This document shows, piece by piece, positions 20,076-47,483 of a stretch of 48,580 nucleotides of DNA. A model generated the notes under the pieces. The model made no database searches and had not been told where the DNA came from. It saw nothing but the letters and a program-made list of their open reading frames with translations. This stretch comes from a virus. Lineage: Duplodnaviria; Caudoviricetes. Location: positions 1-48,580 of the IMG/VR virus record IMGVR_UViG_3300046383_000033. One strand, given 5' to 3'. The first letter of the stretch is position 1. The number at the start of each line of letters is the position of its first letter. A program made the translations under genes and the position numbers.

Positions 20076-20416
20076 GGCAGCTCCATTTGCACACGACGAA
20101 TTGCGGCGAGGGTGTAACCTAAACGTTGCCACCTCTGTAAGAAAGTACGACGTTATACCGATATCAGTAGGTATCGACTGCCACCAGTACGGATCGTGAT
20201 GGCCCTAGAGGGAACCCCCGGAGCTTCTGGCTGCGCCAGACTCGCCTTCTGCTTCGCAGTTTGGGAATCCGGGAAGAAGGGAAATTTTGAAGGGGGGTCG
20301 AGAATCAAAAAATAGCAGTGGTCGCGGCGGGCGGCCGGGGGTCGCGGGCGCATAGAAGATCGCGCGGTTCTTTCATGCAAACGTCCATCTCCCTAGTAGG
20401 GATGTGGCCAGCCATC

Positions 20417-20917
20417 TTAACTCGTTGTCTCCGCTGGCTTTGTTGGGCCTTTTAGTCTGCCGTCTGCCCGATACCTGCCAACTCTGCTTTCCAGCTCGTT
20501 CTGCGTAGCCTCGATGAGCTGATTCAGCTCGCCCACCGACAGCTCACGCACTGACTTGACCGGCGCGGAGTGATCCCGTTTCAGATCGCCGGACACCTCC
20601 AAGGCCGTGCGGATGGCCAGAACATGCGCCCTCAGATCCGTCTGCGGAGTGCTTAGGATTTCTTCCAGGCACACAGACGCCCTCCTGCCAAGCCTTCTAG
20701 CTCTCTCGTTCGCCAGCTCAGCCGCCGCCAGCCTCACATCCTCATCGCGGCAGAACGCTTGCACGGCTCGCTGGCTGTCGAAGCCGCACCGAGTCCTGAT
20801 GAAGCTCTGAGGCATGCCGGCAGCGAGGAGAACGATTGCAAGCTCGGCGTCCGGTCCGTCGTTGCCGGGAGCATTGCCGGCAAGGTCTTCCGGCCACATT
20901 GCTGTCTGCTCTTCCAT
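20417..20917 (-). CDS. putative terminase small subunit
   Basis: N-terminal HTH-like segment, central helices 'ASVCLEEIL...RAHVLAIRTAL', C-terminal 'ELSVGELNQLI'. Confidence 0.5.
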   Translation of the reverse strand: MEEQTAMWPEDLAGNAPGNDGPDAELAIVLLAAGMPQSFIRTRCGFDSQRAVQAFCRDEDVRLAAAELANERARRLGRRASVCLEEILSTPQTDLRAHVLAIRTALEVSGDLKRDHSAPVKSVRELSVGELNQLIEATQNELESRVGRYRADGRLKGPTKPAETTS

Positions 20918-21005
20918 AGACGTCTAAGTAGATAGTTCTTCCTTGTAGACCATAGACGTCTGAGGACGTCCTTTGCCAATCTCAGGACGTCCTTAGACAG
21001 ACGTA
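20916..21005. repeat. cluster of GACGTC-centred palindromes (operator, iteron or packaging site candidate)
   Basis: TAGACGTCTA 20917, AGACGTCT 20954, AGGACGTCCT 20963 and 20984, AGACGTA 20999. Confidence 0.65.
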
Positions 21006-21090
21006 TCAGGATGGGATCTCCTCCCAGCCCCGCCGCCCGCCAGCCTGCGCCTTGATGCGCCGCACGCGCAACGACACGTAACGACAGTGG

Positions 21091-21120
21091 TTGATCGATA
21101 CGGGTGTACCGTGATACAAC
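21091..21120 (+). promoter_or_regulatory. candidate sigma70 promoter for the early array
   Basis: TTGATC-N18-TACAAC with extended -10 TG. Confidence 0.45.
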
Positions 21121-21174
21121 GGTGTCGGGTCGCGTCTTGTCTGTGTGAGAGCAGGCACCGACGAGGCCCACCGT
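21119..21174 (+). other. long irregular RNA hairpin (candidate processing site)
   Basis: ACGGT/ACCGT, GGGTC/GGCCC, G-A mismatch, CGTC/GACG, TGTCTGT/GCAGGCA, loop GTGAGA. Confidence 0.55.
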
Positions 21175-21196
21175 AACAACCTGATCGGAGCTGAAC

Positions 21197-21532
21197 ATGA
21201 ACGAGAACGAGAAGCGCCAGAAGCGCGAACGCGAATTAGTGCGCGGAGTCATTCGCGCCCTCAAGGCTGCCGGCTGGGAGCCGCACTCAGTTGACGACGG
21301 CGGCGACGAGCCAGAAGCCGCCACGACCGAGGGCGCAGTGCTCGAAGCCGTGTTTGCCGTCGATCTAGCTACCGCGTGGTTTCGCCACGCCGGCCACCCG
21401 CGCAAGTGCTGCGTCTTTTTTGTGTGCGGTGAGGGCGATGACATCATTGCGGATCACTCCGCGCCCGAGCCCGATCCGGCGAACTTCGCCGCCACGATTG
21501 ACGCGTTCATGCGCGCCAAGGGCCTCTACTGA
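21197..21532 (+). CDS. early hypothetical protein
   Basis: GGAGCTG leader; 'VDDGGDE...G.G.DIIADHS' pattern. Confidence 0.75.
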   Translation: MNENEKRQKRERELVRGVIRALKAAGWEPHSVDDGGDEPEAATTEGAVLEAVFAVDLATAWFRHAGHPRKCCVFFVCGEGDDIIADHSAPEPDPANFAATIDAFMRAKGLY

Positions 21533-21590
21533 GTCGGTGGCCGCGTTGTGCGTCTTCTCACGAGGGCGCACAGCGAGGCATCCCGCCTCA
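21530..21590 (+). other. long RNA hairpin (candidate processing site)
   Basis: 14-bp upper stem CGTTGTGCGTCTTC/GAGGGCGCACAGCG above a G-A mismatch; loop TCAC. Confidence 0.6.
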
Positions 21591-21606
21591 TTCGGAGCTG
21601 TTACAC

Positions 21607-21816
21607 ATGAACCCTTACGCTTTGCCGCGCGCCTCCTCTGGCCGCTTCACTCGTCGCCGCGCTCTTGCCGTCCGCGCCCACTTCCATCAGCCGTGCGCCC
21701 GGACCCGTTTCGGCTGGGAGCCGACACCCGTCCGCGCTGGCTTCGGCCTGTGCGCCCTGGCCGTCATGGTCGGCTTCTTGTCGGTGATGCTCCTCGCCTG
21801 CGCGGTGATCCAGTGA
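21607..21816 (+). CDS. small membrane protein
   Basis: GGAGCTG leader; C-terminal hydrophobic helix. Confidence 0.6.
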   Translation: MNPYALPRASSGRFTRRRALAVRAHFHQPCARTRFGWEPTPVRAGFGLCALAVMVGFLSVMLLACAVIQ

Positions 21817-22163
21817 GCGCCGTTGAGATGGCGCGCCGCGATGATGCGCTCGCGTTGATTGTTGCCGAGCTGGACAGCCAGCGCCTTGACCCTCGCGCGT
21901 TTCTGCGAGTCCCCGGCAAGTGGCTTGCGGCTTGCGGTTACGGTGACGCCGACCGCGTGCTTCCCGTGCTGAAAGTCGATGTGCGGTCTGACTGGTGGAC
22001 GTTCGCCACCGTTGACGCTTCGAGCATCGGCGGCCTGTCGCGTTGGGTGGTCCACGTGCCGTGCAGGGGCGCGACGTTCCAGAGCGCGCCGGAGTCCATC
22101 GAGGCCGACGCCACGCGTTGCCCTCACGCGGACTGGTACGACACGAGTGCCGAGCTGCGCTGA
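21813..22163 (+). CDS. hypothetical protein
   Basis: GTGA coupling. Confidence 0.55.
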   Translation: MSAVEMARRDDALALIVAELDSQRLDPRAFLRVPGKWLAACGYGDADRVLPVLKVDVRSDWWTFATVDASSIGGLSRWVVHVPCRGATFQSAPESIEADATRCPHADWYDTSAELR

Positions 22164-22212
22164 TTGCGCCGCCTCATGGGCCCGGTGTCGCCGGGTTCAT
22201 GGGGAGACGCAA
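22163..22212 (+). other. long RNA hairpin (candidate processing site)
   Basis: 14-bp upper stem CCTCATGGGCCCGG/CCGGGTTCATGGGG above a G-A mismatch; lower stem ATTGCG/CGCAAT. Confidence 0.6.
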
Positions 22213-22246
22213 TTCCGCGCCTCACTACTGATCGGAGCTGTATCAC

Positions 22247-22432
22247 ATGCAAAACGTCAAGACCGAAGTTAAAGGCAACATCCTGACAATTACCGTGGAC
22301 CTGTCGAAGCGCCTCGGCCCGTCGAGCACGGGAAAGACCATGCTCGTAGCCAGCAGCGAGGGCAGCAGCAAGGTCCCCGGCCACGAGGGCGTGAAGTTCA
22401 CGCTGTCGGCCTTCACGGGTCTGAATCAGTGA
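22247..22432 (+). CDS. small conserved beta-rich protein
   Basis: GGAGCTG leader; 'L.I.VDLSK..G.S.TGKT..VAS..G' pattern. Confidence 0.75.
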   Translation: MQNVKTEVKGNILTITVDLSKRLGPSSTGKTMLVASSEGSSKVPGHEGVKFTLSAFTGLNQ

Positions 22433-22686
22433 GGGCGCGCTGGGATCTGTCGGGCATCCGCCAGACACGGGACGCGCACATGCGCCGCGCTCGCTTCGCT
22501 TTCAAGATGGCCGTTGAGACCACTGGCGAGACTGCGCGCGTCTGGCGCGCCCACGCGCGCCAGCACGTGAAGGCCGCGCGTCGCGAACACTGGATGGTTG
22601 TAGCGCGTGAGCGCTCGCTGTCCGCTGGCCAGTTCACGCGCCGCACCCACGGCGCGCGCAGCGGGCTGGAGGTGCGCGCTCACTAG
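22429..22686 (+). CDS. Arg-rich hypothetical protein
   Basis: GTGA coupling; stop overlaps hammerhead 1. Confidence 0.5.
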   Translation: MRARWDLSGIRQTRDAHMRRARFAFKMAVETTGETARVWRAHARQHVKAARREHWMVVARERSLSAGQFTRRTHGARSGLEVRAH

Positions 22687-22753
22687 GTCGAAACATGGGC
22701 GCGCGTGAGAGTGCGCGCCCATGTCTGCCCGTCACGCGGGCACTGATGAGACC
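22686..22753 (+). ncRNA. hammerhead ribozyme, type II (HH1); predicted cut after C22725
   Basis: GGTC-GAAA-CATGGGCGCGC/GCGCGCCCATG-TC-TGCCCG/CGGGCA-CTGATGA-GACC; full core and three stems; GUC triplet. Confidence 0.9.
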
Positions 22754-22775
22754 AACTAACTAGGAGCTGTAACCG

Positions 22776-23369
22776 ATGAACGAAGAAACCAAGAAACTCG
22801 CGGGCCTCGTCGCCGCCATTGCCAAGGCAATGGGCGCGACTGTCACGCGCGCGCCAGACGCTGAACTCTATTGGAGCGCCAAGGTCCGCACCGCTGACGG
22901 GGTGGACCTTTGGCTATCCAAGAACATGGAGAACCGCCTACGCGCCGCCGTGGACCTTCCGGCGATCAAAGACCGCGATGGCAACGACCGCCAGCAAACC
23001 GTGCGCGATGTGTTGCCATACGGCGAGACCGCGCCAGTGACCGACATCACCGTGAGCATGGACCGCGAGCCCGAAGCCATCGCGCGCGACATCATGCGCC
23101 GCCTCGTACCTGGGGCGAGCGTGGTCTATGCGAAGGCGCTGGAGCGCAAGCGAACGGCCGAGGAGTACGCGCGCGGCACTAACGAGACGCTGGCGAGACT
23201 CGCGAAGGCGTGGAAGTGCAACCCGCGACACGGCACCAACCTTTACCCCGGCAGCGTCACGGTCAACGTGAGCGGCCCCAACTCTGTGAGCTTCGACCGC
23301 ATCTACTGCAACCCTGAGACCGCCATCGCGATTGTGAAACTGCTACAGGCAGACAAGGGGGGCGAATGA
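22776..23369 (+). CDS. early hypothetical protein
   Basis: AACTAACTAGGAGCTG leader. Confidence 0.75.
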   Translation: MNEETKKLAGLVAAIAKAMGATVTRAPDAELYWSAKVRTADGVDLWLSKNMENRLRAAVDLPAIKDRDGNDRQQTVRDVLPYGETAPVTDITVSMDREPEAIARDIMRRLVPGASVVYAKALERKRTAEEYARGTNETLARLAKAWKCNPRHGTNLYPGSVTVNVSGPNSVSFDRIYCNPETAIAIVKLLQADKGGE

Positions 23370-23671
23370 GCGCGCCCGAGCTGGACAAGTGGGGACCGAA
23401 GCCGCCGCGCGAAATCACGGCGGAACGCTTTCACGACATGTTGAACGTGTTGCCACCGTGCAAGTGGCGCGGCATCGGCGCAGCGTTCGAGTCGTTCCAC
23501 GTGTCCGAGCGCCTGAGCGGCAATGTGGTCTCTTGGTTCTGCCGCCTGAGTGACCGGTACTTTCAGGTTGACCAGTTGTCCACGATCCCACGCGCGGAGC
23601 TGGAGCGCATGGTGCGCGAGGAGCTGGGGCGCGTCGTTGTCATGGAGCTATCCGGCACCCGCCACCGCTGA
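23366..23671 (+). CDS. DUF1419-like protein
   Basis: 'EITAERFHDMLNVLPP..W...F.VSE..SG....F....RYF'. Confidence 0.6.
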   Translation: MSAPELDKWGPKPPREITAERFHDMLNVLPPCKWRGIGAAFESFHVSERLSGNVVSWFCRLSDRYFQVDQLSTIPRAELERMVREELGRVVVMELSGTRHR

Positions 23672-23718
23672 CACTCTGATGAGCCCGGAAGGGCGAAACG
23701 CCGTGAGGCGTCAGTGTC
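23670..23718 (+). ncRNA. hammerhead ribozyme, type I (HH2); predicted cut after C23712
   Basis: GACACT-CTGATGA-GCCC(GGAA)GGGC-GAAA-CGCC(GTGA)GGCG-TC-AGTGTC. Confidence 0.93.
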
Positions 23719-23739
23719 TAACTAACTTCGGAGCTGTCA

Positions 23740-24099
23740 ATGGGAACGTATTTTACTCAAGGGGCCGATAAGGCCGCCATCATCGCGGAGTGCCTTCAGA
23801 GCTGCCGCGCGACGAAACACACCGTCAACGGAAATCGCCTGTGGGCCGTTGGCCAATCGCGTGACGGGACTCGCTACGTCATCCTGTTCAAGCTGGAGAA
23901 CGGCGGGCGCATCGGTTGGGGATACAAGCCCCTCGATGAAACCGTGGGCCCCTGCTACTACGATTGCCCGCTCGAATACGTGCAAGAGGTCGAGGCCTTC
24001 CCGCCCATCGCATACGCGGAGGAGTGGCGCGCCAAGGTGTACGCGCACCATGGCGCAAACCGCGCTGGCTATCTGGCGCAACAGGCACTCCCGCTGTAA
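23740..24099 (+). CDS. DUF6927-like protein
   Basis: 'LWAV...WGYKPLDETVGPCYYDCP...WR'; AACTAACTTCGGAGCTG leader. Confidence 0.65.
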   Translation: MGTYFTQGADKAAIIAECLQSCRATKHTVNGNRLWAVGQSRDGTRYVILFKLENGGRIGWGYKPLDETVGPCYYDCPLEYVQEVEAFPPIAYAEEWRAKVYAHHGANRAGYLAQQALPL

Positions 24100-24149
24100 C
24101 CCGCTGATGAGGCCCGCGAGGGGCCGAAACGCCGCGAGGCGTCCGGGTT
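24098..24149 (+). ncRNA. hammerhead ribozyme, type I (HH3); predicted cut after C24143
   Basis: AACCCG-CTGATGA-GGCCC(GCGAG)GGGCC-GAAA-CGCC(GCGA)GGCG-TC-CGGGTT. Confidence 0.93.
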
Positions 24150-24226
24150 GAGAAAACGTGTCAAGCGATTTTTGTTTGCGACAACCGGCCCGCCGGTTTC
24201 CGCGAATCGACACGAGCCGAGCAGGG

Positions 24227-24261
24227 TAGATAGGAGCCCTATCTAGTCGCTTTGGTAAAAT
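24227..24261 (+). promoter_or_regulatory. candidate extended -10 promoter preceded by an inverted repeat
   Basis: TAGATAGG-agc-CCTATCTA, then TGgTAAAAT. Confidence 0.4.
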
Positions 24262-24317
24262 ACCCTTACGCGCGTCACATTCGGCGCGCGAGCTGTTTAA
24301 CAACCGGAGCTGTAAAC

Positions 24318-24623
24318 ATGACTGAACAAGTGTCAGGCGAAACCGTGGCCGACGATCAGGATTTAAACGCCAAATATCGCGTGATGGAATTCAAGGTGGC
24401 CGGTAGTCGAAAGGCCGTGTACCTGTTGAACCCCGGCGATCACTTCCAAAGGTTCGGGGGATCATCTTGCGGGCTTGTCGTCCGCAAAACCGCCAGCCTC
24501 ATCGTTAGCGAGTGGCAAGGAGGCTGTCGGCATGACACGGAATACGACATCAACAAGCCGGACGTGTGGGCGCGGATACTCAATGCGTACCGTGGTTCAC
24601 TCGGCTTGCCGGTGACGGTATGA
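24318..24623 (+). CDS. hypothetical protein
   Basis: AACAACCGGAGCTG leader. Confidence 0.7.
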   Translation: MTEQVSGETVADDQDLNAKYRVMEFKVAGSRKAVYLLNPGDHFQRFGGSSCGLVVRKTASLIVSEWQGGCRHDTEYDINKPDVWARILNAYRGSLGLPVTV

Positions 24624-24847
24624 ACGACCAAGCCATCGGGAAAATGTTCACCGATCTGGAGAACGCTGAGGCCAAGCTGATGCGCGCGTTCAATCGGTGG
24701 GCGAAACTGAAAGCCAAGGTGCGGCGATTCGACAAGCGGTATGCCAAGGAGCTGGCGGCGGCGATGCCCGTTCACGATCTACCTAGGGGCGCGAAACCGT
24801 GGCCGCAGGACATGGAGCATAAAGGAGGCAACAAGAGAAAACGCTGA
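24620..24847 (+). CDS. hypothetical basic helical protein
   Basis: ATGA coupling. Confidence 0.65.
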   Translation: MNDQAIGKMFTDLENAEAKLMRAFNRWAKLKAKVRRFDKRYAKELAAAMPVHDLPRGAKPWPQDMEHKGGNKRKR

Positions 24848-24854
24848 TGATTCA

Positions 24855-24888
24855 CCAACGCCGGGGGCGGTATGCTCCCGGCCGTTGG
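24855..24888 (+). other. intergenic RNA hairpin
   Basis: CCAACG/CGTTGG plus CCGGGGGC/GCTCCCGG. Confidence 0.5.
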
Positions 24889-24914
24889 CCAACTACCCAA
24901 CTGGAGCTGAAACC

Positions 24915-25601
24915 ATGCAGAAGAAAAAACCCGCGCCAACGTGGCGCGCGGATCGAGTGCGCCGGGCCGATGCCGGCGGCACATTGTGGAACGCTGTCCA
25001 CGTCTCAAGCGGGCACGAATACTGGGGCGTCCCGAGTTACGACGCTGAGGCCATCGGCCGGCGAGTCCAGGCGCTCAACGAGGCGCGCGCGCCACTCGGC
25101 CGCGCGAAACCCGTCAACCTCGTCCGCACCATCGAAGACATTTTCAACTTGTACGACGGACAGGAAGTGAACGGCGAGACTCACGCGCGCATCGTGGAAA
25201 TCCTGACCAATGCTGGCTACGTGGTCCGCGAACCGCTGGATGAGTTGGAACCAATGGGATGCAATACCCGCGAGGAAAACGTCGCCGAAATGATGGCCGA
25301 CGAAGAGCGGGCGAAAGCCAAGGCCGATTGTGAATATGACTATGAGCACCTTGAGGCCGCTGCCTGCATGTGGGAGCACGTGTTACATCGCCTGAGGCGC
25401 GTCAAGCCCGGCGACAAGAACCCGTGGGACGAATACCGCAACGCCTACGGAATGGCGGCGCTGCGCGAGGCCGTGATCCGCCACGCACCGACGCTGGAGA
25501 CGGAGTATCAGGCAGCCGTCGCCAATGGGTTCAATGAGCCCTTTGATTGGGAGTACGTGCCGAAGTACATGGAGCAGTACGTGACGAGGATACTCACGTG
25601 A
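24915..25601 (+). CDS. hypothetical protein
   Basis: CAACTGGAGCTG leader. Confidence 0.7.
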   Translation: MQKKKPAPTWRADRVRRADAGGTLWNAVHVSSGHEYWGVPSYDAEAIGRRVQALNEARAPLGRAKPVNLVRTIEDIFNLYDGQEVNGETHARIVEILTNAGYVVREPLDELEPMGCNTREENVAEMMADEERAKAKADCEYDYEHLEAAACMWEHVLHRLRRVKPGDKNPWDEYRNAYGMAALREAVIRHAPTLETEYQAAVANGFNEPFDWEYVPKYMEQYVTRILT

Positions 25602-25726
25602 CCGAAGCGCTTGTGATTTTGGCCGTGTATGCGTTGCTCGCATACTTGGCTTACATGGCCGGCGGCGTCTGGCTACTGACCATCACCGTGATGGCAATAG
25701 CCGCGCTCACGTGGGCGGCGAAGTGA
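25598..25726 (+). CDS. 42-aa hydrophobic membrane peptide (not in ORF track)
   Basis: GTGA coupling; MTEALVILAVYALLAYLAYMAGGVWLLTITVMAIAALTWAAK. Confidence 0.55.
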   Translation: MTEALVILAVYALLAYLAYMAGGVWLLTITVMAIAALTWAAK

Positions 25727-25768
25727 TCGCGAGGCCGGAGCCGTAACCGACGACAACAACGGCGAGTT

Positions 25769-25810
25769 AAACCCCGGACGGGCTTCCCACCCTCCGGGGT
25801 TTACTTTTTT
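25769..25810 (+). terminator. intrinsic terminator between convergent units
   Basis: AAACCCCGGA...TCCGGGGTTT followed by ACTTTTTT. Confidence 0.7.
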
Positions 25811-26296: not shown

Positions 26297-26371
26297 TGGT
26301 GCAGCCAGCAGGGATCGAACCTGCGACCTTTCCCATGTCAAGGGAACGCTCTACCGCTGAGCTATGGCTGC
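26297..26371 (-). tRNA. tRNA-Val(GAC)
   Basis: GCAGCCA/TGGCTGC-ACCA acceptor, GCTC/GAGC D arm, TTCCC-TTGACAT-GGGAA anticodon arm, GCAGG-TTCGATC-CCTGC T arm. Confidence 0.95.
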
Positions 26372-33001: not shown

Positions 33002-33404
33002 CCCGCTGCCGGAGGCCGCACCTCTCATGTTCGAGACGTGCGTGGCTTGCCGCCGGCAGGGAATCGTGGCGGCCGAGGTATTCCCGTTCTGGTGGGGTCT
33101 GCCCATAGGGCACAGGTGGTGTCACCGATCCTGTGCAGAGCGATACCGCGCCGCGCTAGTAGCCGCTCAACGTGCGCGAGCAGTTGAGGGGAGCAGACCA
33201 AGGGCCCAGGTAGGGCATGTACGTGAACGCGAGTCATTGGGCGCGGCGCATGGCGACATGGCGCGCACCGTAAACCAGTCCGAGCAAAAAGCAAGGGGAG
33301 CTGTCAGTGAGCAACATCATTCAGTTAAAGCACGCCGCGAAGATCCACGGCTGCGACGGGATCGTGGCGGAAGTCGTGACGATTACGCCGGCCGAGGCAA
33401 CTAA
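32985..33404 (+). CDS. hypothetical protein (uncertain)
   Basis: CxxC and CHxxC motifs, but overlaps the next gene by about 100 nt. Confidence 0.3.
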   Translation: MGRRRNPLPEAAPLMFETCVACRRQGIVAAEVFPFWWGLPIGHRWCHRSCAERYRAALVAAQRARAVEGSRPRAQVGHVRERESLGAAHGDMARTVNQSEQKARGAVSEQHHSVKARREDPRLRRDRGGSRDDYAGRGN

Positions 33405-38789: not shown

Positions 38790-41700
38790 TCATTTCGTTT
38801 CGCCAAGGTCGTCGTCCGTGCCGCTCGTGTCGTTCTCCGTGCCGCGCCGCTGAAGCTCGCCTTCTGCTCCGACATCGCCGGCCGCAGCGGCTTTCGTCAG
38901 TTCCTTGTTCGTGTCGCCAACAACGAAGTCTGCTACCGAGTCAGTGACACGCGGCGAGGACAACATCATGAGCCCGATGCCGAGCGCGGCATCGACGCCT
39001 GGGAAGCGGCTCACAATTGAAAGCACGAATGAGCTGGTAAGCGCCGAGGCAGCCTGCCACGTGCCCTCAATGGCCTTGTGGGAATAGGTGTTTGTTTCGC
39101 TGTCGCTGATGACGGCGCGCCCTACGTCTTGCAGGATCTTGAGCCCCGTCGCCGGGACCGGACCGGCCATGAGCTGCGTCAGATCGCGCTCGTATCGCAA
39201 GCCAAGGAACGCGTTCACCAGCGGATCAGCGGCCCCGAACATGCCGGAGCGTGAAATCGACTGCCACGCCCACGCTGGCGCGCCGAACTGCTTCTGACCT
39301 AACTTCTCCTCGATCTCGTCCCAATCGTCGCCGCTGAAAAGGGCCTGACCCGCGACATATGCGGCGAGCTGTCCTGCCGCAATCAGCGAGAGCGAAAGCA
39401 TGGCGGAACCGGCGGCCATTACGCCGAGTGTCCCGTCCGTGTTCCATGTCCGCCGGATTTCCTTCGCGGTCGCAATAAGGATGTTGCGCTGGTACGCGAA
39501 CTGAAACGAGAGGATGCCGTACATGAAGGAATATTCCGGCATCGAGGCCAAGCGCGGTTTGTCGATGGCCGAGGGGTTCTGCACGCCGCCATCCACGAAG
39601 CGGTTGATCGCGGTGCGGATCGCATCGATATGGCGCAACTGGTCGAGCTGCGTTACGTCCTGGATGTTGCCGAGCTGCGCCAGCTCCGCTATGAGGCCTT
39701 CACTGCGCACGTCGAGGCCGAGTTCGGCGAGCGCCTGACGTGCGAGCTGGCCCTTCTTGCCGCCCTTCAGTGCGCGCTTCGCCATGTTCGGCGCGTACCG
39801 CGTCATGAAAATATCGGCGACTGCGCGACGCATACTCATCGCATGCGGATGCACGCCGATGACTTGAAAGAAGCGGGCCATCTTCACGCGGTCGGAGGAG
39901 TTCAGGTCCATCAAGTTGTAGCGCTGGAGCATGATCTGGTCGGCCATATGGTCAGCGACGATGCCGAAGTATTCGGCCATCTCACGACGCCATGCGGCTT
40001 TTTGCTTCGCGGTCTTGATGCCCACTTTCGCGGCCACGTCCTGCATCTGTTTGTAATAGACGCGAAAGCCATCGGTGAGGTTGCCGGTCTTCTTGGCCGT
40101 GACGAACGGCTCGGCGAGCTGCGAGCGCAGGGAGCGAGTGAGTATCACAGGCGTTATGAGTGCTGTGAGTCTCATGCGCCAGCGCATCGCCTTCTTCGTC
40201 ATGTTGGTGTTGTAGCGTCCGACGAGTAGATCGATCGACTTCTGCAACTCCTCGATTTCATCCTGATTGACTCTGTGCATCGAGCCATCTGCGCGACGAT
40301 ACGGCAGGCGCGCCGAATGGAGAGCTGCGTCGAGCTTCCAGCCGAGTTTCTTGTCCTTCGTCTCATTGCCGAAGAACTTGCCGAATTCCACTCGCCGCAC
40401 ACTCTGGCTGATGTACGTGGTAATGAGTTCGAGCGGATCGGTCTTCATGTAGTCAGCCATGATCGCGTCCGTCTCTGCCGGCAATCGCCGTGACTTCGTG
40501 TACTTGCCATCAGGCCCGCGCTTCTCGAAAGAAAATTCCGGCTCCGCGCCGATCCCACGGATTCTCATTTCCCAGTCGTTCGCGGCTTCCATCGCCCATG
40601 GGTTGCGCAGTCCGTCGTACAGCGCTTCGCCGAGTTCCGCGATGCGCTCCTCCAGTTCCGCGGTATCCGTACCGGCCTCAGCCGCCTCCTGTAGTTCCTG
40701 CAACGCGTTCTCGAGATCCTTGGCGTCCTCGAGCATTTGGCGTGCGAGGTCTCGCGCATCCACGATGTTGCCATTGCGCTCAATTTCCCTCACATACTGG
40801 ATGATGTTCTGAAGCCCTTCTGGGTGTTCGAGTGGATCGCGGAGCACGGAGTCGAGCGTGCCGATTTCATCACCGTACACGCGTGCGTATAGGATGCGCG
40901 CCTGCGTGCGGAAGCCATCGATATTGTTTTCCACCAGCATCGAATCGATGACGCGCGGTAGATAGCCGTTCTTCGCGTAGCCGATGTTGACGCCGTTGCT
41001 CGCGTTGTAGGCGTACATGTCATTCAGGAACTTCCGCATGTCGATGGCGGCGTTCCTGATCTTCTCTGACACGGAGTCATGTGGGATCGCGTTCACCAAC
41101 ACATCGCGCAATTGGCGCAGCTCGGCGTCGTTGAAGCCTCTGACATCGTGCTTCTTTACGATTTCGGCGAAACGGTTCTGGTAGGTCTTGTCCCAGTGCC
41201 GTATCTCCTCGCTCCACACAGCGCCCGTGTACCGGCCGGAGCCCGGATCGGTCGCAAACTTCGCGCGCAACCATTCGATGCCCTGATTACCTCTATGGTC
41301 CTCTTCGAGTACGAGGATGTTTCCGCGAATCGTGTACGCCAACATGCGCGGGACGTCGGTGGCGATATCGATAATTTTCAAGCCCTGATTCGCAAGCCAG
41401 CGGCGGCGGCCGGACCAGTTCCGTTCGTTGAGCTTCGAGTCGCGAAGGCGCTGGTCCTGCTTGTCGCGTTCACGCGCCTCGCGGTCGGCGCGATACGCTT
41501 CGGCGCGCGCTTCCTTGAACGGGCGCAGGAGTCGGGCGACTACGCTCTGCGCCTGCTGGATGGTCCTTGCCGGCAGCAAAGGTGCCAACGTTTTCCAGTA
41601 ACGCTGGACAGTGGGATCGATCCTTGCCGGCGCATTACCGCTGTCCACCATCGAGCTGTCGCGCAAGGCGCGCATCAACGTGTCGAGGTTCGCGAAAATA

Positions 41701-44700
41701 TTGGTGCGGTCTGACTGCTGCGGATACGGAACCGTCATTTCGCCGATGCGGTTCTCGTTGTACATGCGCCGGGACTGCGTGACGAATGGGTGATCCGAGG
41801 GGAGTCCGGCGATCTTCTGCGCAGTGAAGGCCTCGAAAGATCGCGCGAACATTTCCGTTGGGCGCTGCCAATAGCCTTTGTCGCTGCCCTCCGGCGTGGG
41901 GCCGTCCATTGCCTTCGCGGCTTCGTAATACTCCGACTCAATGCCTTTCTTCTTCGAGTGGCCCAACTTGAAGTTGTCGAGCTGCGTCTGGAATTTCCGC
42001 CGCTGCTTGTCCGACCTGGCTGTGGCAATTTTCTTCTCAAGGTCCGCGATGTAGAGAGCGGCCTTCGCGCCATCGAAGTACATCGCGTTCAAGACCCCGA
42101 TGTACGCATCGCGCGCCTGTTCGTTCATCGTCTCGGCGACGCCGCCCGCGCGCGTCTTGCCGGTCAGGTGACGGCCCTTGATCGCAAGCATTTCCGGCGC
42201 GAAGGTCTCAACAAGGTAGTGATCGAGCGCATGCGCCCATTCGTGGGCGAACGCATCGTTGCGCCGGGTCATGCCAATCGTGCGCGTGCCTGGATGGTAG
42301 TAGGCGAGTGCGCCGCCTTGGGCCTCACGTTCGAGCGACAGCGCCAGCCGGCCGTTGAGGCTCATCATGCCGGGGTTCATGTTATGCGTTGCGGCAAGGT
42401 TGTTGAGGCCGACGTATGCGTCCTTCAACGCATCGATGGCCTCGCCCCAGTTGAGGTTGTTGGCTTTTGTGATGTCGCGAAAGCCGTATCGCTTCTTCAC
42501 GAGTTCGGCGGCCTTCGCAAACTGCTCGGCCGGCAGAGCCAGAGTCATGAGGCCGGGGTCGATCCCGGCATCCGTCCAAATTTGTTCGTTCTCGGAGGCG
42601 CGCTTCTCGCCCTCACGCGTGATGCTGTACGGGGTGCGCGCCTGCCGATACTTACGCGGCTCCTTGCGGCGCAGTTCGTCGGTCAGGAAGTCTGCTTGAT
42701 CGCTTTCTTCTGATGCTTGATAACGGCTTGCGTCCCGGCCCTCACGAGATCCTGATGGCCGTGCTTTTTCCCCGCCGCCCTCATCGCCTGTCCGAGCAGA
42801 TACGGCCGCAGATGGTTTTCCTCCTGCGGTGAAGAGTCCGCCTTGGGCGGTTGCTTTTCCGGCTTCTTCTCGTTCACGTGCCTGTTCCTTCGTTCTTCGA
42901 GCCTCGTTGATTCTACCGAGTTCGGCGGCCGGCTTCAGGGTAGGCGCTTCACCTTCATCGCCGAAGAGCCCGCCGCCGGCCTGCCTCGGCGGGTACTGGC
43001 GGGCCTGTTTCACGTACTCGGACAGGATGTCACCGATGGCAACGCCGGAGCGCAATCGCTTGGCGTTACCGCGCCCGTCGAAGCTGTAGAAGCTCTGGAT
43101 GAGCTGCTTAACCGTGTCGTCCTTCGGGTCGAGCATGTCTTCCGTGTTGAGCCATTCGGTCACGGCGGCGGCAGAACCGGCGTTACGTACCACCTCGATG
43201 GCCTCGGCGATCTGCGAGCCGATATCGGCCTCGTCCTGAACGCGGCCGGCGGCAATGTCGTCTTTCAGTTTGGCAAACACTGGCGCGTAGCGAACGAGCG
43301 TATTCACCAAGGTCTGCGCGTCGGTGCCAACGGTGCCCACGGCACGACGGATCGCCGCTTCGCCGGCCGGCGTTCCGCCAAATGCCCGCTGTAACAGAGC
43401 CGCCTTCGCACGCGTGACCGCCGCCGGGCTCGGCCGGCCATCCGCGTCCACCAGTTCGCCGCGCTCGGCTGGCGTGAACTTGCTCACGAACGCGGCGACG
43501 AACTTCGCGCCTTCGCTCTTCGCCAGATCGAAGCCCTCAGGCATTTCTTCTGGGAGCTTCGCCATCACTTCTGGCGTCAGCATGTCTTGATCGACGCGCG
43601 CCTGCTCCTCGGCAGACATACGCATAACAGCGGTCTTGTTTGCCTCCTTCGTCCATTTCACCCGCTGCTCGTCCGTCATTTCCGTCATGCGGCGACGGAC
43701 CAGCACGGGGTTCTTCATCTTCGAGACATCGACGCCAGAAGTCTCCGCGACAAACGCGCGGTATCTCTGCGCGGCCTCGGGATTGCGCGAGTACATTTGG
43801 CGGATCGCCCTCACGCGACCGTTGCCGGACTCCACGTAGTTATCGTCTCTGCCGATGATCGGCGCGCCATGTTCGGCGTGGCGACTCAGGCCGAGTTGTT
43901 TGGGGTCCAGGTTGCTGGCCATCTTGCCGACCTGTTCCTCGCGTTTCGCGGTGCGCGGCTGGAGCTTCTGAGGGAACTTCGGGTTGTCCGAGGTGATGAG
44001 GTCGTCGGCTTCGACCACTTCGATGGCGGTATCTACTTCCATGCCGCCGGCAGTAATCACCGTCTCGCGTTTGTCCGTGAGGGCAGGGCGCGTGCCGGTG
44101 TAGATAGGCTCGTCGAATTCAGGTGCCTCTCTTTCGGCGGTCATCCCCGGCTCGTCTTCCGGCGGCTCCTCCTCCGGCATCGTCTCTTCGGCGGCCTGCG
44201 TGCCGATGTCCTCGGCCTGTTCGACCATCTCCTCCTCGGGCTCGCTCGTCGTCTCCTCTGCGTTCGTTTGATGCTGGACAATTTTCATCAACCACTCGGC
44301 AACGTCGAACGAGCGCAGGTCGTGCGGCTTGAGGCCGAGTCCGGCCGCGTAGCCGGTGAGATAGTGTTGAACGGGATTGAAGCCATCCGGCCGCATGTCC
44401 TTCGACGGGAACATTGCCTTCGCGCGCTCAGGATCAATCGGCGTCCCGGCCTTCGCGTCTTTCCAGCCCTGCAACATACCCAGGTCGGCATACACCGGCT
44501 CGTCGCCGACAAACTTCGCGATGCGATCAAACTCGGGGTCGCTCTTGCGAAGAGCCTTGTATTCCTTTCGGATCGCCTTGTGCTTCGCCTTCTCCGCCTT
44601 GATGGATTCTTCACGCTCGCGATCCGATGCTGCCGCCTCTTCGGGAGTCAACGGGGGTTCTTCTGGCGTCACCTCGGCCGGCGGCGCTTCGGGCGCTACC

Positions 44701-47483
44701 TTCTTTCCCTTGGAGACCTTCTTCGGTTTCGCCGCCACGGGCGCAGGCGGCTGAGTCGCCAGACCTGGCTGCGCGGCCGGCGCTGTAGTCGCCTTCGCCG
44801 CGCGCCCCTCGCGGAATAACTGTCCTTCGTGTGACCGCGATTGGCCTTCTTGTGAGAGCGGCGGAATCTTCGCTCCAGACTCTTCCGCAAAATCATACAT
44901 CGCGCTCGCGATGCCTTTGCGACGCCATCCCGGATTTACTTCTACACTGGGGTTGTAGCGCGTGCCGTCATCATCTTCGAGGAGTTCATAGTCGAGGCTG
45001 CCGATGTCGTTTCCATCTGCGTCCGTGGCGATGATCCTCTCTGATTCACCCGGTCTATACTCAACTCTGGTGAGCGTGACAGGCCCCTTGTCAGTGTTGA
45101 TTGTTCGAGTACCGAGAACAGCACCCCTCGGCTTTGTGGCCGGCTGAGGGGCCGCCCCGCCCGCTGGTTTCTTCTGCGTCTTGGAAACCGCTGGTGCTGT
45201 TGGGGCAGGTGCCGGTGCGGGTTCAGTTGGCGCAGGAGTAGCGGGCGGGGCGGCGTTGAGCATCCGCGCGAGTGGCGAGTCGTTGAAAGACGCGGGACCA
45301 AACTCGCCGGGCGAAACGCTCTGCTGCGGCGACTGGAACGCGGTAGATAGGGAGCGCTCGCCTTGCGGCGCGGCGGCCGGCGGCTGCGGCGCTGGCGTTG
45401 GCTGTCGCAGCGCGCTGGACATTTGCGCGAGCTGCTGGACGTTCCTGGCCTGAACGGCGGCCGGGCTTTCCTGCGCGATTTGCTGCGCGAACTCAAGCGC
45501 GGTCCACGGTCGAATCTCGCCGGATGGGTCCTTCAGGCCAAGGAAATGCTGGGCCGGGTCCGGGTGAGGGCTGACGGCCATTACTTCGTAGACTCCATCT
45601 GGAGCCTCGAAAGTCATGCCTTTCTTGAGGAGTTTCTGGAGGACCGCCGCGCGCCGTTCGGGCGTGACTGGCTCTGACGCGGCCCCCTGCGCAGCCGGCG
45701 GTATCGGAGCTGTACCTGTCCCGCCAGCCGCGTCAGAGGTCCGACTACCCGTGAGAGCGGGCGCGCCCATTGTATCAGCGGGCCGCGAGGGCGGGTTGCG
45801 GATCATGTCGAGCAGCCCTTGCGCTGAGGCAAGGGCACTCTCGCGGGTGTCCTCGGCCGCGCGAGTGGCGCGGTCTTGCTCAACGCGGCGCTTCGCGTTG
45901 ACCGCAGCGTCAAAGCCCTTTGCGGCACCGGCCTGCGCGCCAGCTTGCGCCAACACCGTGCCGTATGTGACGGGCAACTCGGCGAGCCCTTCACGCAATC
46001 CTTCTGCCACCGGATCGAGCAAAGACGCATCAGGATCGGCTTCCGCGATGGCGCGGTTCACTGACTGGCCGAGACTGGCGATTGTTTCGCCTGGAACGTC
46101 GGCCGTGAGCGTTTCGCCGAAGCGGCGCATGAATGGGGATGCTTCTTTCGCGAACGGAGACAACGCCGGCAGCTCTGTCGCCACTTCAATCAGGCCCTCA
46201 ACGGTCGAGGCCTTGTCGGCGGTTCCACGCGGTATTCCTTGGCCCGGCATGATTATCCGGTCAGCTCCGAGGACATCGCTAACGCTTCCGCCGGGCGGCT
46301 CGTACCCGTGCTCACGCATCTCGCCGTATGCGCTGAGTTTCGTTGTGGGGTACATGGTTGAAACGCCGAGTAGCGGGTTGCGCGTGGCCAGCGTCATCGC
46401 GAGCGAGGGCGCGGAGAGCGCGATGGAGTTTGTCGCGCCCGTGACTACCTGCGGCCAGTAGCCCGTGTTGCGCGCGGCGATGTCCTGCGCTTCGGCGGTC
46501 ATCTCAAGCCCGGCAGCTCTGGCTTTCTGGATCTTGTCGCGTAGAGCCAGCAACAAAGGATCGTCCTGCAAGCGGCGCAGCTCTTCCGGCGTGCGCGAAT
46601 ACTTCGGCGTCCCGCCACGGCCGACAGGCCACGAGCGGCCAAGCAGCTCGTCTTCGAGCGTTTCGAGCTGATCCAGTTCGTAACCCTGCACCGTGCGCGC
46701 CAGCGCGCCGCGCAGCGAGTTCCACCAATCAGCGCCAGACGGAAGCTCGAAGCTCTCACCGAGTGATTCGCCAAGTGATTCGCCAACGGTAACGCCAAAG
46801 TCGTCCGGCGCTCTTTCCGACGTGCCGCGATCCTGCGAGTAGTAGCCGCCATACGGATCGAATGGTTTGTTCTCCGGCCGAGACGCAGAGACGCGGCGTT
46901 GTCCAGGCACCATCGAGAAGGTGTCTGCGAGGTTGAGCGGGCGCAGGAAGTCCGGCCCGCCGTACTGGCGCTCCTGATCTTCGTGCAAGCGCTGAGCGTA
47001 GGCGTCGGCGGCGTGCTGGTCCGTGAAGATCCCGAGGTGCCGGCCCTTGCGCCGATACTCTTCGATGGCGTCAGCCTCATTCATCATCTTGCCGGTGTCG
47101 CTGACAGTCGGGATCAGCACTTCTCCTTCGTCCGTGCCGATGGACATTGAGCGCACGGTGCTGATCGAGCCGTCAGGGTTGTGAACCACTGGCCGTGTGT
47201 TCAGGTCTATGTTGCCGCCCTTGAGCGGTAGCATCAGCCCGGACGGGCGCATCTCATCTCTCGGCAGCTCGTGACGGCCGCCGCGCTGGCCGGGATCGCT
47301 GTGCGACGGGCCGAGTGACTGGCGGCTCATTAGATAGTCAACGATGTCCGTATCAGCGAGACCGGCTTCACGCGCGGCGATAACTCCCGGCTCCTGCTTC
47401 TCCGCAAGATAGTCGGCAATCTCCTCATCGGAGAGCCCCGCAGCGCGGGCCTGCTCGATGGCGCGATTGGTTGCTGTTGCCAT
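38790..47483 (-). CDS. giant polyvalent internal virion protein (GNAT, ddrB-like ParB, zincin/LPD1-like domains)
   Basis: 2897 aa; '[15 protein letters not shown]', 'LQPR...GAP.I...VESGNGR', 'AHEWAHALD', '[14 protein letters not shown]'. Confidence 0.8.

Follow-up and report, generated by a model that had tools for sequence, protein, structure and literature searches.

The virus record IMGVR_UViG_3300046383_000033 (48,580 bases, GC 62%), analysed whole and called the window here, belongs to a podophage-like phage that is probably temperate; library matches identify a major capsid protein, a large terminase, an SU10-type adaptor, a tyrosine integrase, RecE/RecT and a large polyvalent protein. 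The subject of this report is an array of 12 small plus-strand open reading frames (ORFs), bounded on one side by a divergent 166-amino-acid (aa) gene and on the other by a tRNA and the integrase gene, in which three junctions between genes carry a hammerhead ribozyme and others carry long hairpins. The ORFs stand singly or in coupled pairs, and seven GGAGCTG leaders, presumably a variant of the Shine–Dalgarno sequence, precede them. A predicted sigma70-type promoter, P1 (21091–21120, plus strand), has a −35 element TTGATC and an extended −10 element TGnTACAAC, and this pattern is found at the matching place in 11 of 12 clade loci. Searches of the array proteins with Pfam, PHROG and PADLOC returned no function above cut-off. 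The genes are probably early, a label that comes from their gene content and the host-type promoter.

Hammerheads were sought with a descriptor holding the consensus core (C3 U4 G5 A6 N7 G8 A9, G12 A13 A14 A15 and U16 H17; PMC3088659) and three stems, in all three permutations and on both strands of the whole window. Exactly three were found in the 48.6-kb genome, all on the plus strand, with none elsewhere on either strand. Among 100 dinucleotide shuffles, 0.01 sites per genome (one match) were found with stems of at least 3 bp and none with at least 4 bp. Hammerhead 1 (22686–22753) is type II, with stems I/II/III of 7/4/13 bp; cleavage is predicted after C22725, which lies 37 nt ahead of the next leader. 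Hammerhead 2 (23670–23718) is type I, with stems of 6/4/4 bp and a predicted cut after C23712, 17 nt before its leader. Hammerhead 3 (24097–24150), also type I, has stems of 7/5/4 bp and a predicted cut after C24143; the next leader lies 162 nt away, with a promoter-like motif, P2, in between. All three have a complete core and GUC triplet and three stems without a mispair beside the core, and each overlaps the upstream stop codon. An earlier interpretation made from the DNA letters alone (the sequence-only reading) had placed three complete sense-strand hammerheads in three consecutive gaps, and the descriptor recovers the same three; the gaps are indeed consecutive, since the junction between the first two hammerheads (23366/23369) is an ATGA overlap without a gap. 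That reading gave the third element as 24098–24149, which is the same ribozyme with its outer U–G pair left off. In hammerhead 2, loop II is GGAA, with A at loop position L4, A(L4), and U1.7 is unpaired; no tertiary contact joining stem I to stem II was identified for hammerhead 3.

The array is conserved in related viral contigs. Protein-anchored scans, after removal of duplicates and fragments, gave eight related arrays (L001, L002, L004, L137, L138, L145, L152 and L210), those of L002, L145 and L152 being truncated by contig ends. Counts over nine arrays refer to these and the window; loci that lack the array or hold only its start (L003, L144, L146–L151, L154, L157–L159, L161–L163) fall outside them, same-contig duplicates were counted once (L005, L136, L139–L143, L149, L153, L155, L156, L160), and distant homologues of the 61-aa gene (L164–L209) lie outside the analysis. 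The nine arrays contain 25 hammerheads (22 in the relatives), 23 of type I and two of type II, all on the array strand and none on the opposite one. A relaxed type I search of the nine arrays found no core with a single substitution, so the conservation of cores that the sequence-only reading staked its case on is borne out. Across an alignment of 10 type I copies, two-sided changes affect 8 of the 15 pairs (21 cells in total; 0 of 500 shuffles), with the reservation that one row misaligned by MAFFT was kept and that related sequences can beat a shuffle control. The L145 orthologue of hammerhead 1 shows compensatory changes, and a sister copy in L145 clears the Rfam model RF00163 (34.6 against a cut-off of 34). 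Ten copies combine a 6-bp stem I with a 4-nt loop II, and in all of them the loop ends in A(L4) and U1.7, seven bases past the cut, is unpaired; this contact is reported to speed minimal hammerheads (PMC11875169). Four hammerheads (L002 6469–6535, L145 1591–1539, L152 74–25 and L210 2767–2715) have an extra U between A9 and stem II. The window hammerheads are real, conserved and very probably active.

Hammerhead arrays of this kind extend well beyond the clade. One exact hammerhead pattern is present in at least 128 stretches of viral contigs. Among the matches listed, 80 loci had flanks, some of them overlapping on one contig, and 39 of these hold two or more hammerheads, on one strand in all 39. 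A stop codon lies within 15 nt of the hammerhead start in 91 of 118 distinct distant copies (among the matches listed), compared with 57 of 590 random positions. Three unrelated viral contigs carry nine (L014), eight (L045, all type II) and seven (L063) same-strand hammerheads within 6–12 kb. Arrays of seven to nine occur, and three copies in one array are unremarkable.

Hammerheads are only one kind of junction element in this clade. Excluding the first gene after P1, 57 junctions before leader-bearing genes were listed by hand, of which 25 have a hammerhead and 32 do not. The latter mostly hold long hairpins: the stem reaches at least 14 bp in 28 of 32 and at least 17 bp in 25 of 32 (median 22), whereas coding control windows reach 17 bp in 26 of 182 and 21 of 200 cases (median 10). 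Two hairpin families covary, A10 in 17 of 18 pairs and A9 in 13 of 19. On the sense strand, G–U exceeds A–C by 55:8 in A10 and by 14:4 in A9, a bias which points to folding as the transcript strand. In the window, junction hairpin a (21530–21590) and junction hairpin b (22162–22214), both plus-strand members of family A10 and candidate RNase III sites, have z scores of −4.3 and −2.7. A third hairpin lies at 24855–24888 (z −2.4). The sequence-only reading had noted long hairpins in the other gaps, which holds for these three; a hairpin in the 5′ leader of the putative P1 transcript (21127–21169, plus strand) is weak, its RNAfold z of −0.5 being no better than shuffles, and a similar apex is found in L001, L137 and L145.

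Hammerheads and hairpins exchange at homologous junctions. After each of four upstream gene families, the junction element is a hammerhead in part of the phages and a hairpin in the rest, with counts of 2 hammerheads against 5 hairpins, 2 against 2 plus a remnant in the window, 4 against 1, and 1 against 1. The first of these swaps concerns the gene before hammerhead 1; among phages that share both flanking genes there, the ribozyme is present in the window and L145 and a hairpin in L001. The stem III apex of hammerhead 1 resembles the hairpin apex at that junction in L001 and L137, which is suggestive of a relationship between the two elements. The window remnant is a decayed fourth hammerhead (24844–24888, plus strand), overlooked by the sequence-only reading and now a plain hairpin. 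It aligns with intact hammerheads of L145, where the upstream gene is the same, and of L002; it retains CTGATGA and stem III, stem II and G12–A13 having been lost, and no other intergenic orphan CTGAYGA occurs in the 37 kb of arrays. Junction elements tend to move together with the gene upstream of them.

The hairpins of family A10 may be sites for RNase III. In E. coli, the proximal-box rule calls for at least 11 bp above the site, A–U or U–A at proximal-box position pb2 and no G–C or C–G at pb4 (PMC1540722; PMC3867540); the distal box UA/UG is not conserved across RNase III substrates (PMC3867540). Family A10 was represented by 15 hairpins from the nine arrays and three from fragments, and 15 of these 18 fit the rule, mostly in one homologous register, compared with 5.8 expected from permuted stems; two of the three that fail had been excised too short. 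Within an otherwise GC-rich helix, one position is A–U or U–A in 14 of 18 and a U–G lies two pairs away in 16 of 18. The fit is suggestive of RNase III cutting in this family.

Taken together, the hammerheads and the long hairpins, the latter probably host RNase III sites, likely cut the P1 message into mRNAs of one or two genes. P1 would drive one long message, and at most gaps either a ribozyme or host RNase III would cleave it. If only the hammerheads cut, the products would be pieces of about 1,600, 987 and 431 nt and a 3′ piece running to the terminator, and hammerhead 3 would close the P1 block, with P2 lying before the next leader. Upstream pieces would finish in one or two GC-rich hairpins (stem III alone for type II, otherwise stems II and III) and so block 3′ exonucleases, and downstream pieces would begin 12–37 nt before their own Shine–Dalgarno sequence. 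Translation and decay of neighbouring cargo genes would then be uncoupled, so that genes could be gained, lost or reordered. Segmentation of the transcript, as the sequence-only reading proposed, is still the best interpretation. Its claim that segmentation is independent of protein fares less well, with 32 of 57 junctions lacking a hammerhead, mostly carrying long hairpins, and one hairpin family fitting the RNase III rule. A further step, that a hammerhead and an RNase III hairpin solve one and the same task, can replace each other and can turn into each other, is suggested by the junctions that flip within the clade, the shared stem III apex and the hammerhead decaying into a hairpin, and is held tentatively, at slightly less than even chances.

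Several results weigh against this interpretation. All three window hammerheads miss the gathering cut-off of the Rfam models RF00163, RF02276, RF02275 and RF00008; the Infernal check called for by the sequence-only reading yields two sub-threshold matches (hammerhead 1 to Hammerhead_II, RF02276, at 26.3 of 37 bits, and hammerhead 2 to HH9 at 15.8 of 52) and none at E ≤ 10 for hammerhead 3, and at gathering level Rfam finds only the tRNA in the window. A gathering score is a database cut-off and no mechanistic requirement. By inspection of its sequence, hammerhead 1 lacks the pseudoknot between loop I and the 3′ tail that is usual for type II. When the copies were folded at equilibrium together with the downstream leader, the hammerhead structure dominated in only 13 of 25, and for hammerhead 2 a rival anti-Shine–Dalgarno fold won. 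A section heading in PMC11875169 terms U1.7 not essential, and of the 18 consensus hammerheads tested in PMC3088659, 4 were inactive. The decayed copy implies that the cut is dispensable at its junction, or that the remnant hairpin suffices there. As to the hairpins, family A9 fits the proximal-box rule in 6 of 9 cases compared with 4.4 expected, which is not significant (P 0.21). Hairpin b fits at the shared register, but hairpin a fits only one register off and has G–C at the shared pb2. The test was devised after the alignment had been seen, its rows are related and 8 of 32 hairpin junctions lie outside it. Natural RNase III sites, moreover, match the consensus poorly (PMC5371410).

Two other accounts concern what cleavage is for. 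RNase E is stimulated by a 5′-monophosphate, and the product of RNase III carries a 5′-phosphate. The sequence-only reading had proposed that the selected product is the 5′-hydroxyl end, which would shield the downstream mRNA from 5′-monophosphate-dependent decay as in a natural RiboJ-like insulator. Most cuts do fall shortly before the Shine–Dalgarno sequence, at 12–21 nt for type I and at 37 nt for type II, where a 5′ hairpin would be left. This function is nevertheless unlikely because hairpins can occupy those same junctions and, should they be RNase III sites, would leave 5′-phosphates, and because hammerhead 3 precedes a probable second promoter; a hammerhead and promoter-like motif spaced in this way recur in five arrays (the window, L001, L004, L145 and L210), with 154–162 nt from cut to leader and the motif in between. 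Self-cleavage of glmS, furthermore, leads to degradation and gives no protection (PMC6765202). In a host with RNase E, the 5′-hydroxyl end may be a side benefit. It is less probable still that cleavage acts as a regulated or destabilising switch, starting decay or tuning the downstream gene in response to ribosomes stopping on the 5′ end of the hammerhead. Such coupling would account for the overlap of every window hammerhead with a stop codon and for the folding predicted for hammerhead 2, whose 5′ strand, together with its core, is able to pair with the Shine–Dalgarno sequence of the next gene (23665–23745, −33.0 kcal/mol), leaving it paired with a probability of 1.0 uncut and 0.34 once cut. 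The anti-Shine–Dalgarno fold, however, is not consistently conserved among the other hammerhead copies tested, the stop-codon overlap is general among distant copies and is also explained by compact genomes, and the short stems would presumably form before the leader is transcribed.

Two further accounts turn on the hairpins and on the mobility of the elements. The hairpins may not be cut at all, in which case hairpins and hammerhead stems would mainly be 3′ stabilisers or signals for pausing or partial termination, and only the hammerheads would cleave. The lack of enrichment of family A9 for the RNase III rule agrees with this, as do the retention of hairpins on the upstream piece after type I cleavage and the survival of a hairpin alone in the decayed hammerhead. 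It is improbable all the same: pure stability would need neither the A–U/U–A nor the U–G constraint of family A10, family A9 has conserved internal loops, and no U tracts follow the junction hairpins in the sequence. That the elements are DNA recombination sites, comparable to the attC sites of integron cassettes, with ribozyme activity incidental, would explain why gene content and order vary among the relatives and why elements tend to move with the upstream gene, and an integrase gene does lie 2.6 kb downstream. This is very improbable given RNA catalytic cores intact in 25 copies, the sense-strand G–U bias, and ends that differ between hammerheads and hairpin families with no common terminal core such as the attC consensus would require.

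The remaining elements of the array lie on the plus strand. An ORF of 111 aa (21197–21532, leader 21187) matches phrog_4158 (E 4e-13) and has homologues in L001 and L004. Two coupled ORFs (21607–21816 and 21813–22163, leader 21594) have no library match, and the next pair (22247–22432 and 22429–22686, leader 22234) is conserved in the clade. The pair between hammerheads 1 and 2 (22776–23369 and 23366–23671, leader 22763) includes a second ORF with a weak DUF1419 match (E 0.036, below cut-off). The ORF of 119 aa that follows (23740–24099, leader 23730) matches phrog_21047 (E 6e-9); its nearest Atlas model is in the DUF6927 cluster (TM 0.63), a lead only. The probable second promoter P2 (24253–24261), also overlooked by the sequence-only reading, has the extended −10-like sequence TGGTAAAAT, and the motif follows a hammerhead in 5 of 12 clade loci; a hairpin at 24269–24290 would open its transcript. 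Between hammerhead 3 and P2, a stretch at 24152–24180, shared with L001, L145 and L210, contains a minus-strand TTGACA without a matching −10 and is possibly an operator. Two coupled ORFs (24318–24623 and 24620–24847, leader 24306) and the last two (24915–25601 and 25598–25726, leader 24903) complete the set. The array closes with a predicted intrinsic terminator (25764–25810), whose stem and U tract are found in six clade loci; a motif just upstream (25737–25765) is likewise conserved in six and has a weak Rfam match to the rnk leader (E 1). A consensus scanner lists neither P1 nor the terminator. The leader that the sequence-only reading ascribed to each unit is present in all seven cases; the motif also stands before genes outside the array, at 33297 and 35163 (plus strand) and at 20084 and 17745 (minus strand), and before the integrase gene in L001, L004, L137 and L138. 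Gene sets vary among the nine arrays, and the exchangeable cargo of the relatives includes a RadC JAB protein, beta-clamp-like proteins and DUF7007 (L002 4454–4930; L138 6549–5935; L210 3408–2767; L145 2577–2176).

Outside the array, the divergent 166-aa gene (20417–20917) is ‘TerS-like’ by position only and has no library match. A run of short GACGTC-type repeats (20918–21010) separates it from P1 and is a possible packaging or origin site; the repeats differ in the relatives. A tRNA with anticodon GAC (Val; 26300–26371, minus strand) lies between the terminator and the integrase gene, with a tRNA at the equivalent place in L001, L004, L137, L138 and L210, and is possibly part of attP. The large polyvalent protein (2,897 aa; 38790–47483, minus strand) has ddrB-ParB and LPD1 domains. 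As the window contains no exact terminal repeat, neither a genome end nor a ‘first-injected’ position of the array is established. Bryobacteraceae were considered as hosts, as a TerS-like query matches a contig in a Bryobacteraceae metagenome-assembled genome; the sole tRNA match is on that very contig, so a host is not established. An integrase-based scan of genome contigs gave no match. By descriptor, Mae-Yong1326-1 and RHph_N65, whose capsid proteins are related (43% and 38%), contain no hammerheads, and there is therefore no cultured close relative at hand.

Both the hammerhead layout and the idea of segmentation have been in print since 2011. In prophages, clusters of hammerheads are found close to integrases, on either side of single genes or of short gene blocks, and processing into operon-length or single-gene mRNAs was proposed for them (Perreault et al., 2011; PMC3088659). 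Tandem arrays cleave in vitro, and for a triple hammerhead of Agrobacterium cleavage was shown in E. coli as well as in vitro (PMC3088659). The link between ribozymes and gene neighbourhoods is confirmed in PMC5737381, and a 2019 review repeats the polycistron-processing proposal while calling the purpose of intergenic ribozymes in bacteria and phages unresolved (PMC6765202). The window array is like these clusters in having tandem sense-strand hammerheads of mixed type between variable hypothetical genes near an integrase. It differs in belonging to an uncultured podophage-like clade, in the exchange with hairpins and the decayed copy, which are undescribed in the parts of the 2011 paper used here, and in a type II copy without the common pseudoknot. 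The neighbourhoods described in the 2019 review place hammerhead, twister, pistol and hatchet ribozymes near each other and near phage-type genes (PMC6765202), whereas the window has hammerheads only: with Rfam at relaxed E-values, neither twister nor pistol nor hatchet came up, either in the window stretch or in nine relative loci. The early mRNA of phage T7 has five RNase III processing signals (PMC3867540), and the resemblance lies in the long, imperfectly paired hairpins that separate small genes within a polycistronic transcript and, for most of family A10, in A–U or U–A at pb2, a non-GC pair at pb4 and 11–13 pairs above the site. Here, in contrast, the candidate sites are mixed with ribozymes and form three or more hairpin families, of which A9 does not fit. 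No report of exchange between hammerheads and RNase III hairpins was found in the open-licence PubMed Central (PMC) and bioRxiv literature.

In synthetic insulators of the RiboJ type, a hammerhead cuts just upstream of the ribosome-binding site. The predicted window cuts are similarly near the Shine–Dalgarno sequence, and after the type II cut a 5′ hairpin would remain; the window hammerheads differ in being natural, mostly type I with a short unstructured 5′ tail, and interchangeable with non-ribozyme hairpins. Candidate insulator parts are offered by the compact type I hammerheads (49 nt) and by the type II copy. Three more hammerheads leave the question of purpose unchanged, but natural swaps at a junction help with it, and the swap pairs together with the decayed copy make the function of the ribozyme testable. 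If hammerheads and RNase III hairpins are interchangeable, the selected function would be a cut with a hairpin-capped 3′ end and not a special end chemistry, and the ribozyme would free the phage from a host nuclease.

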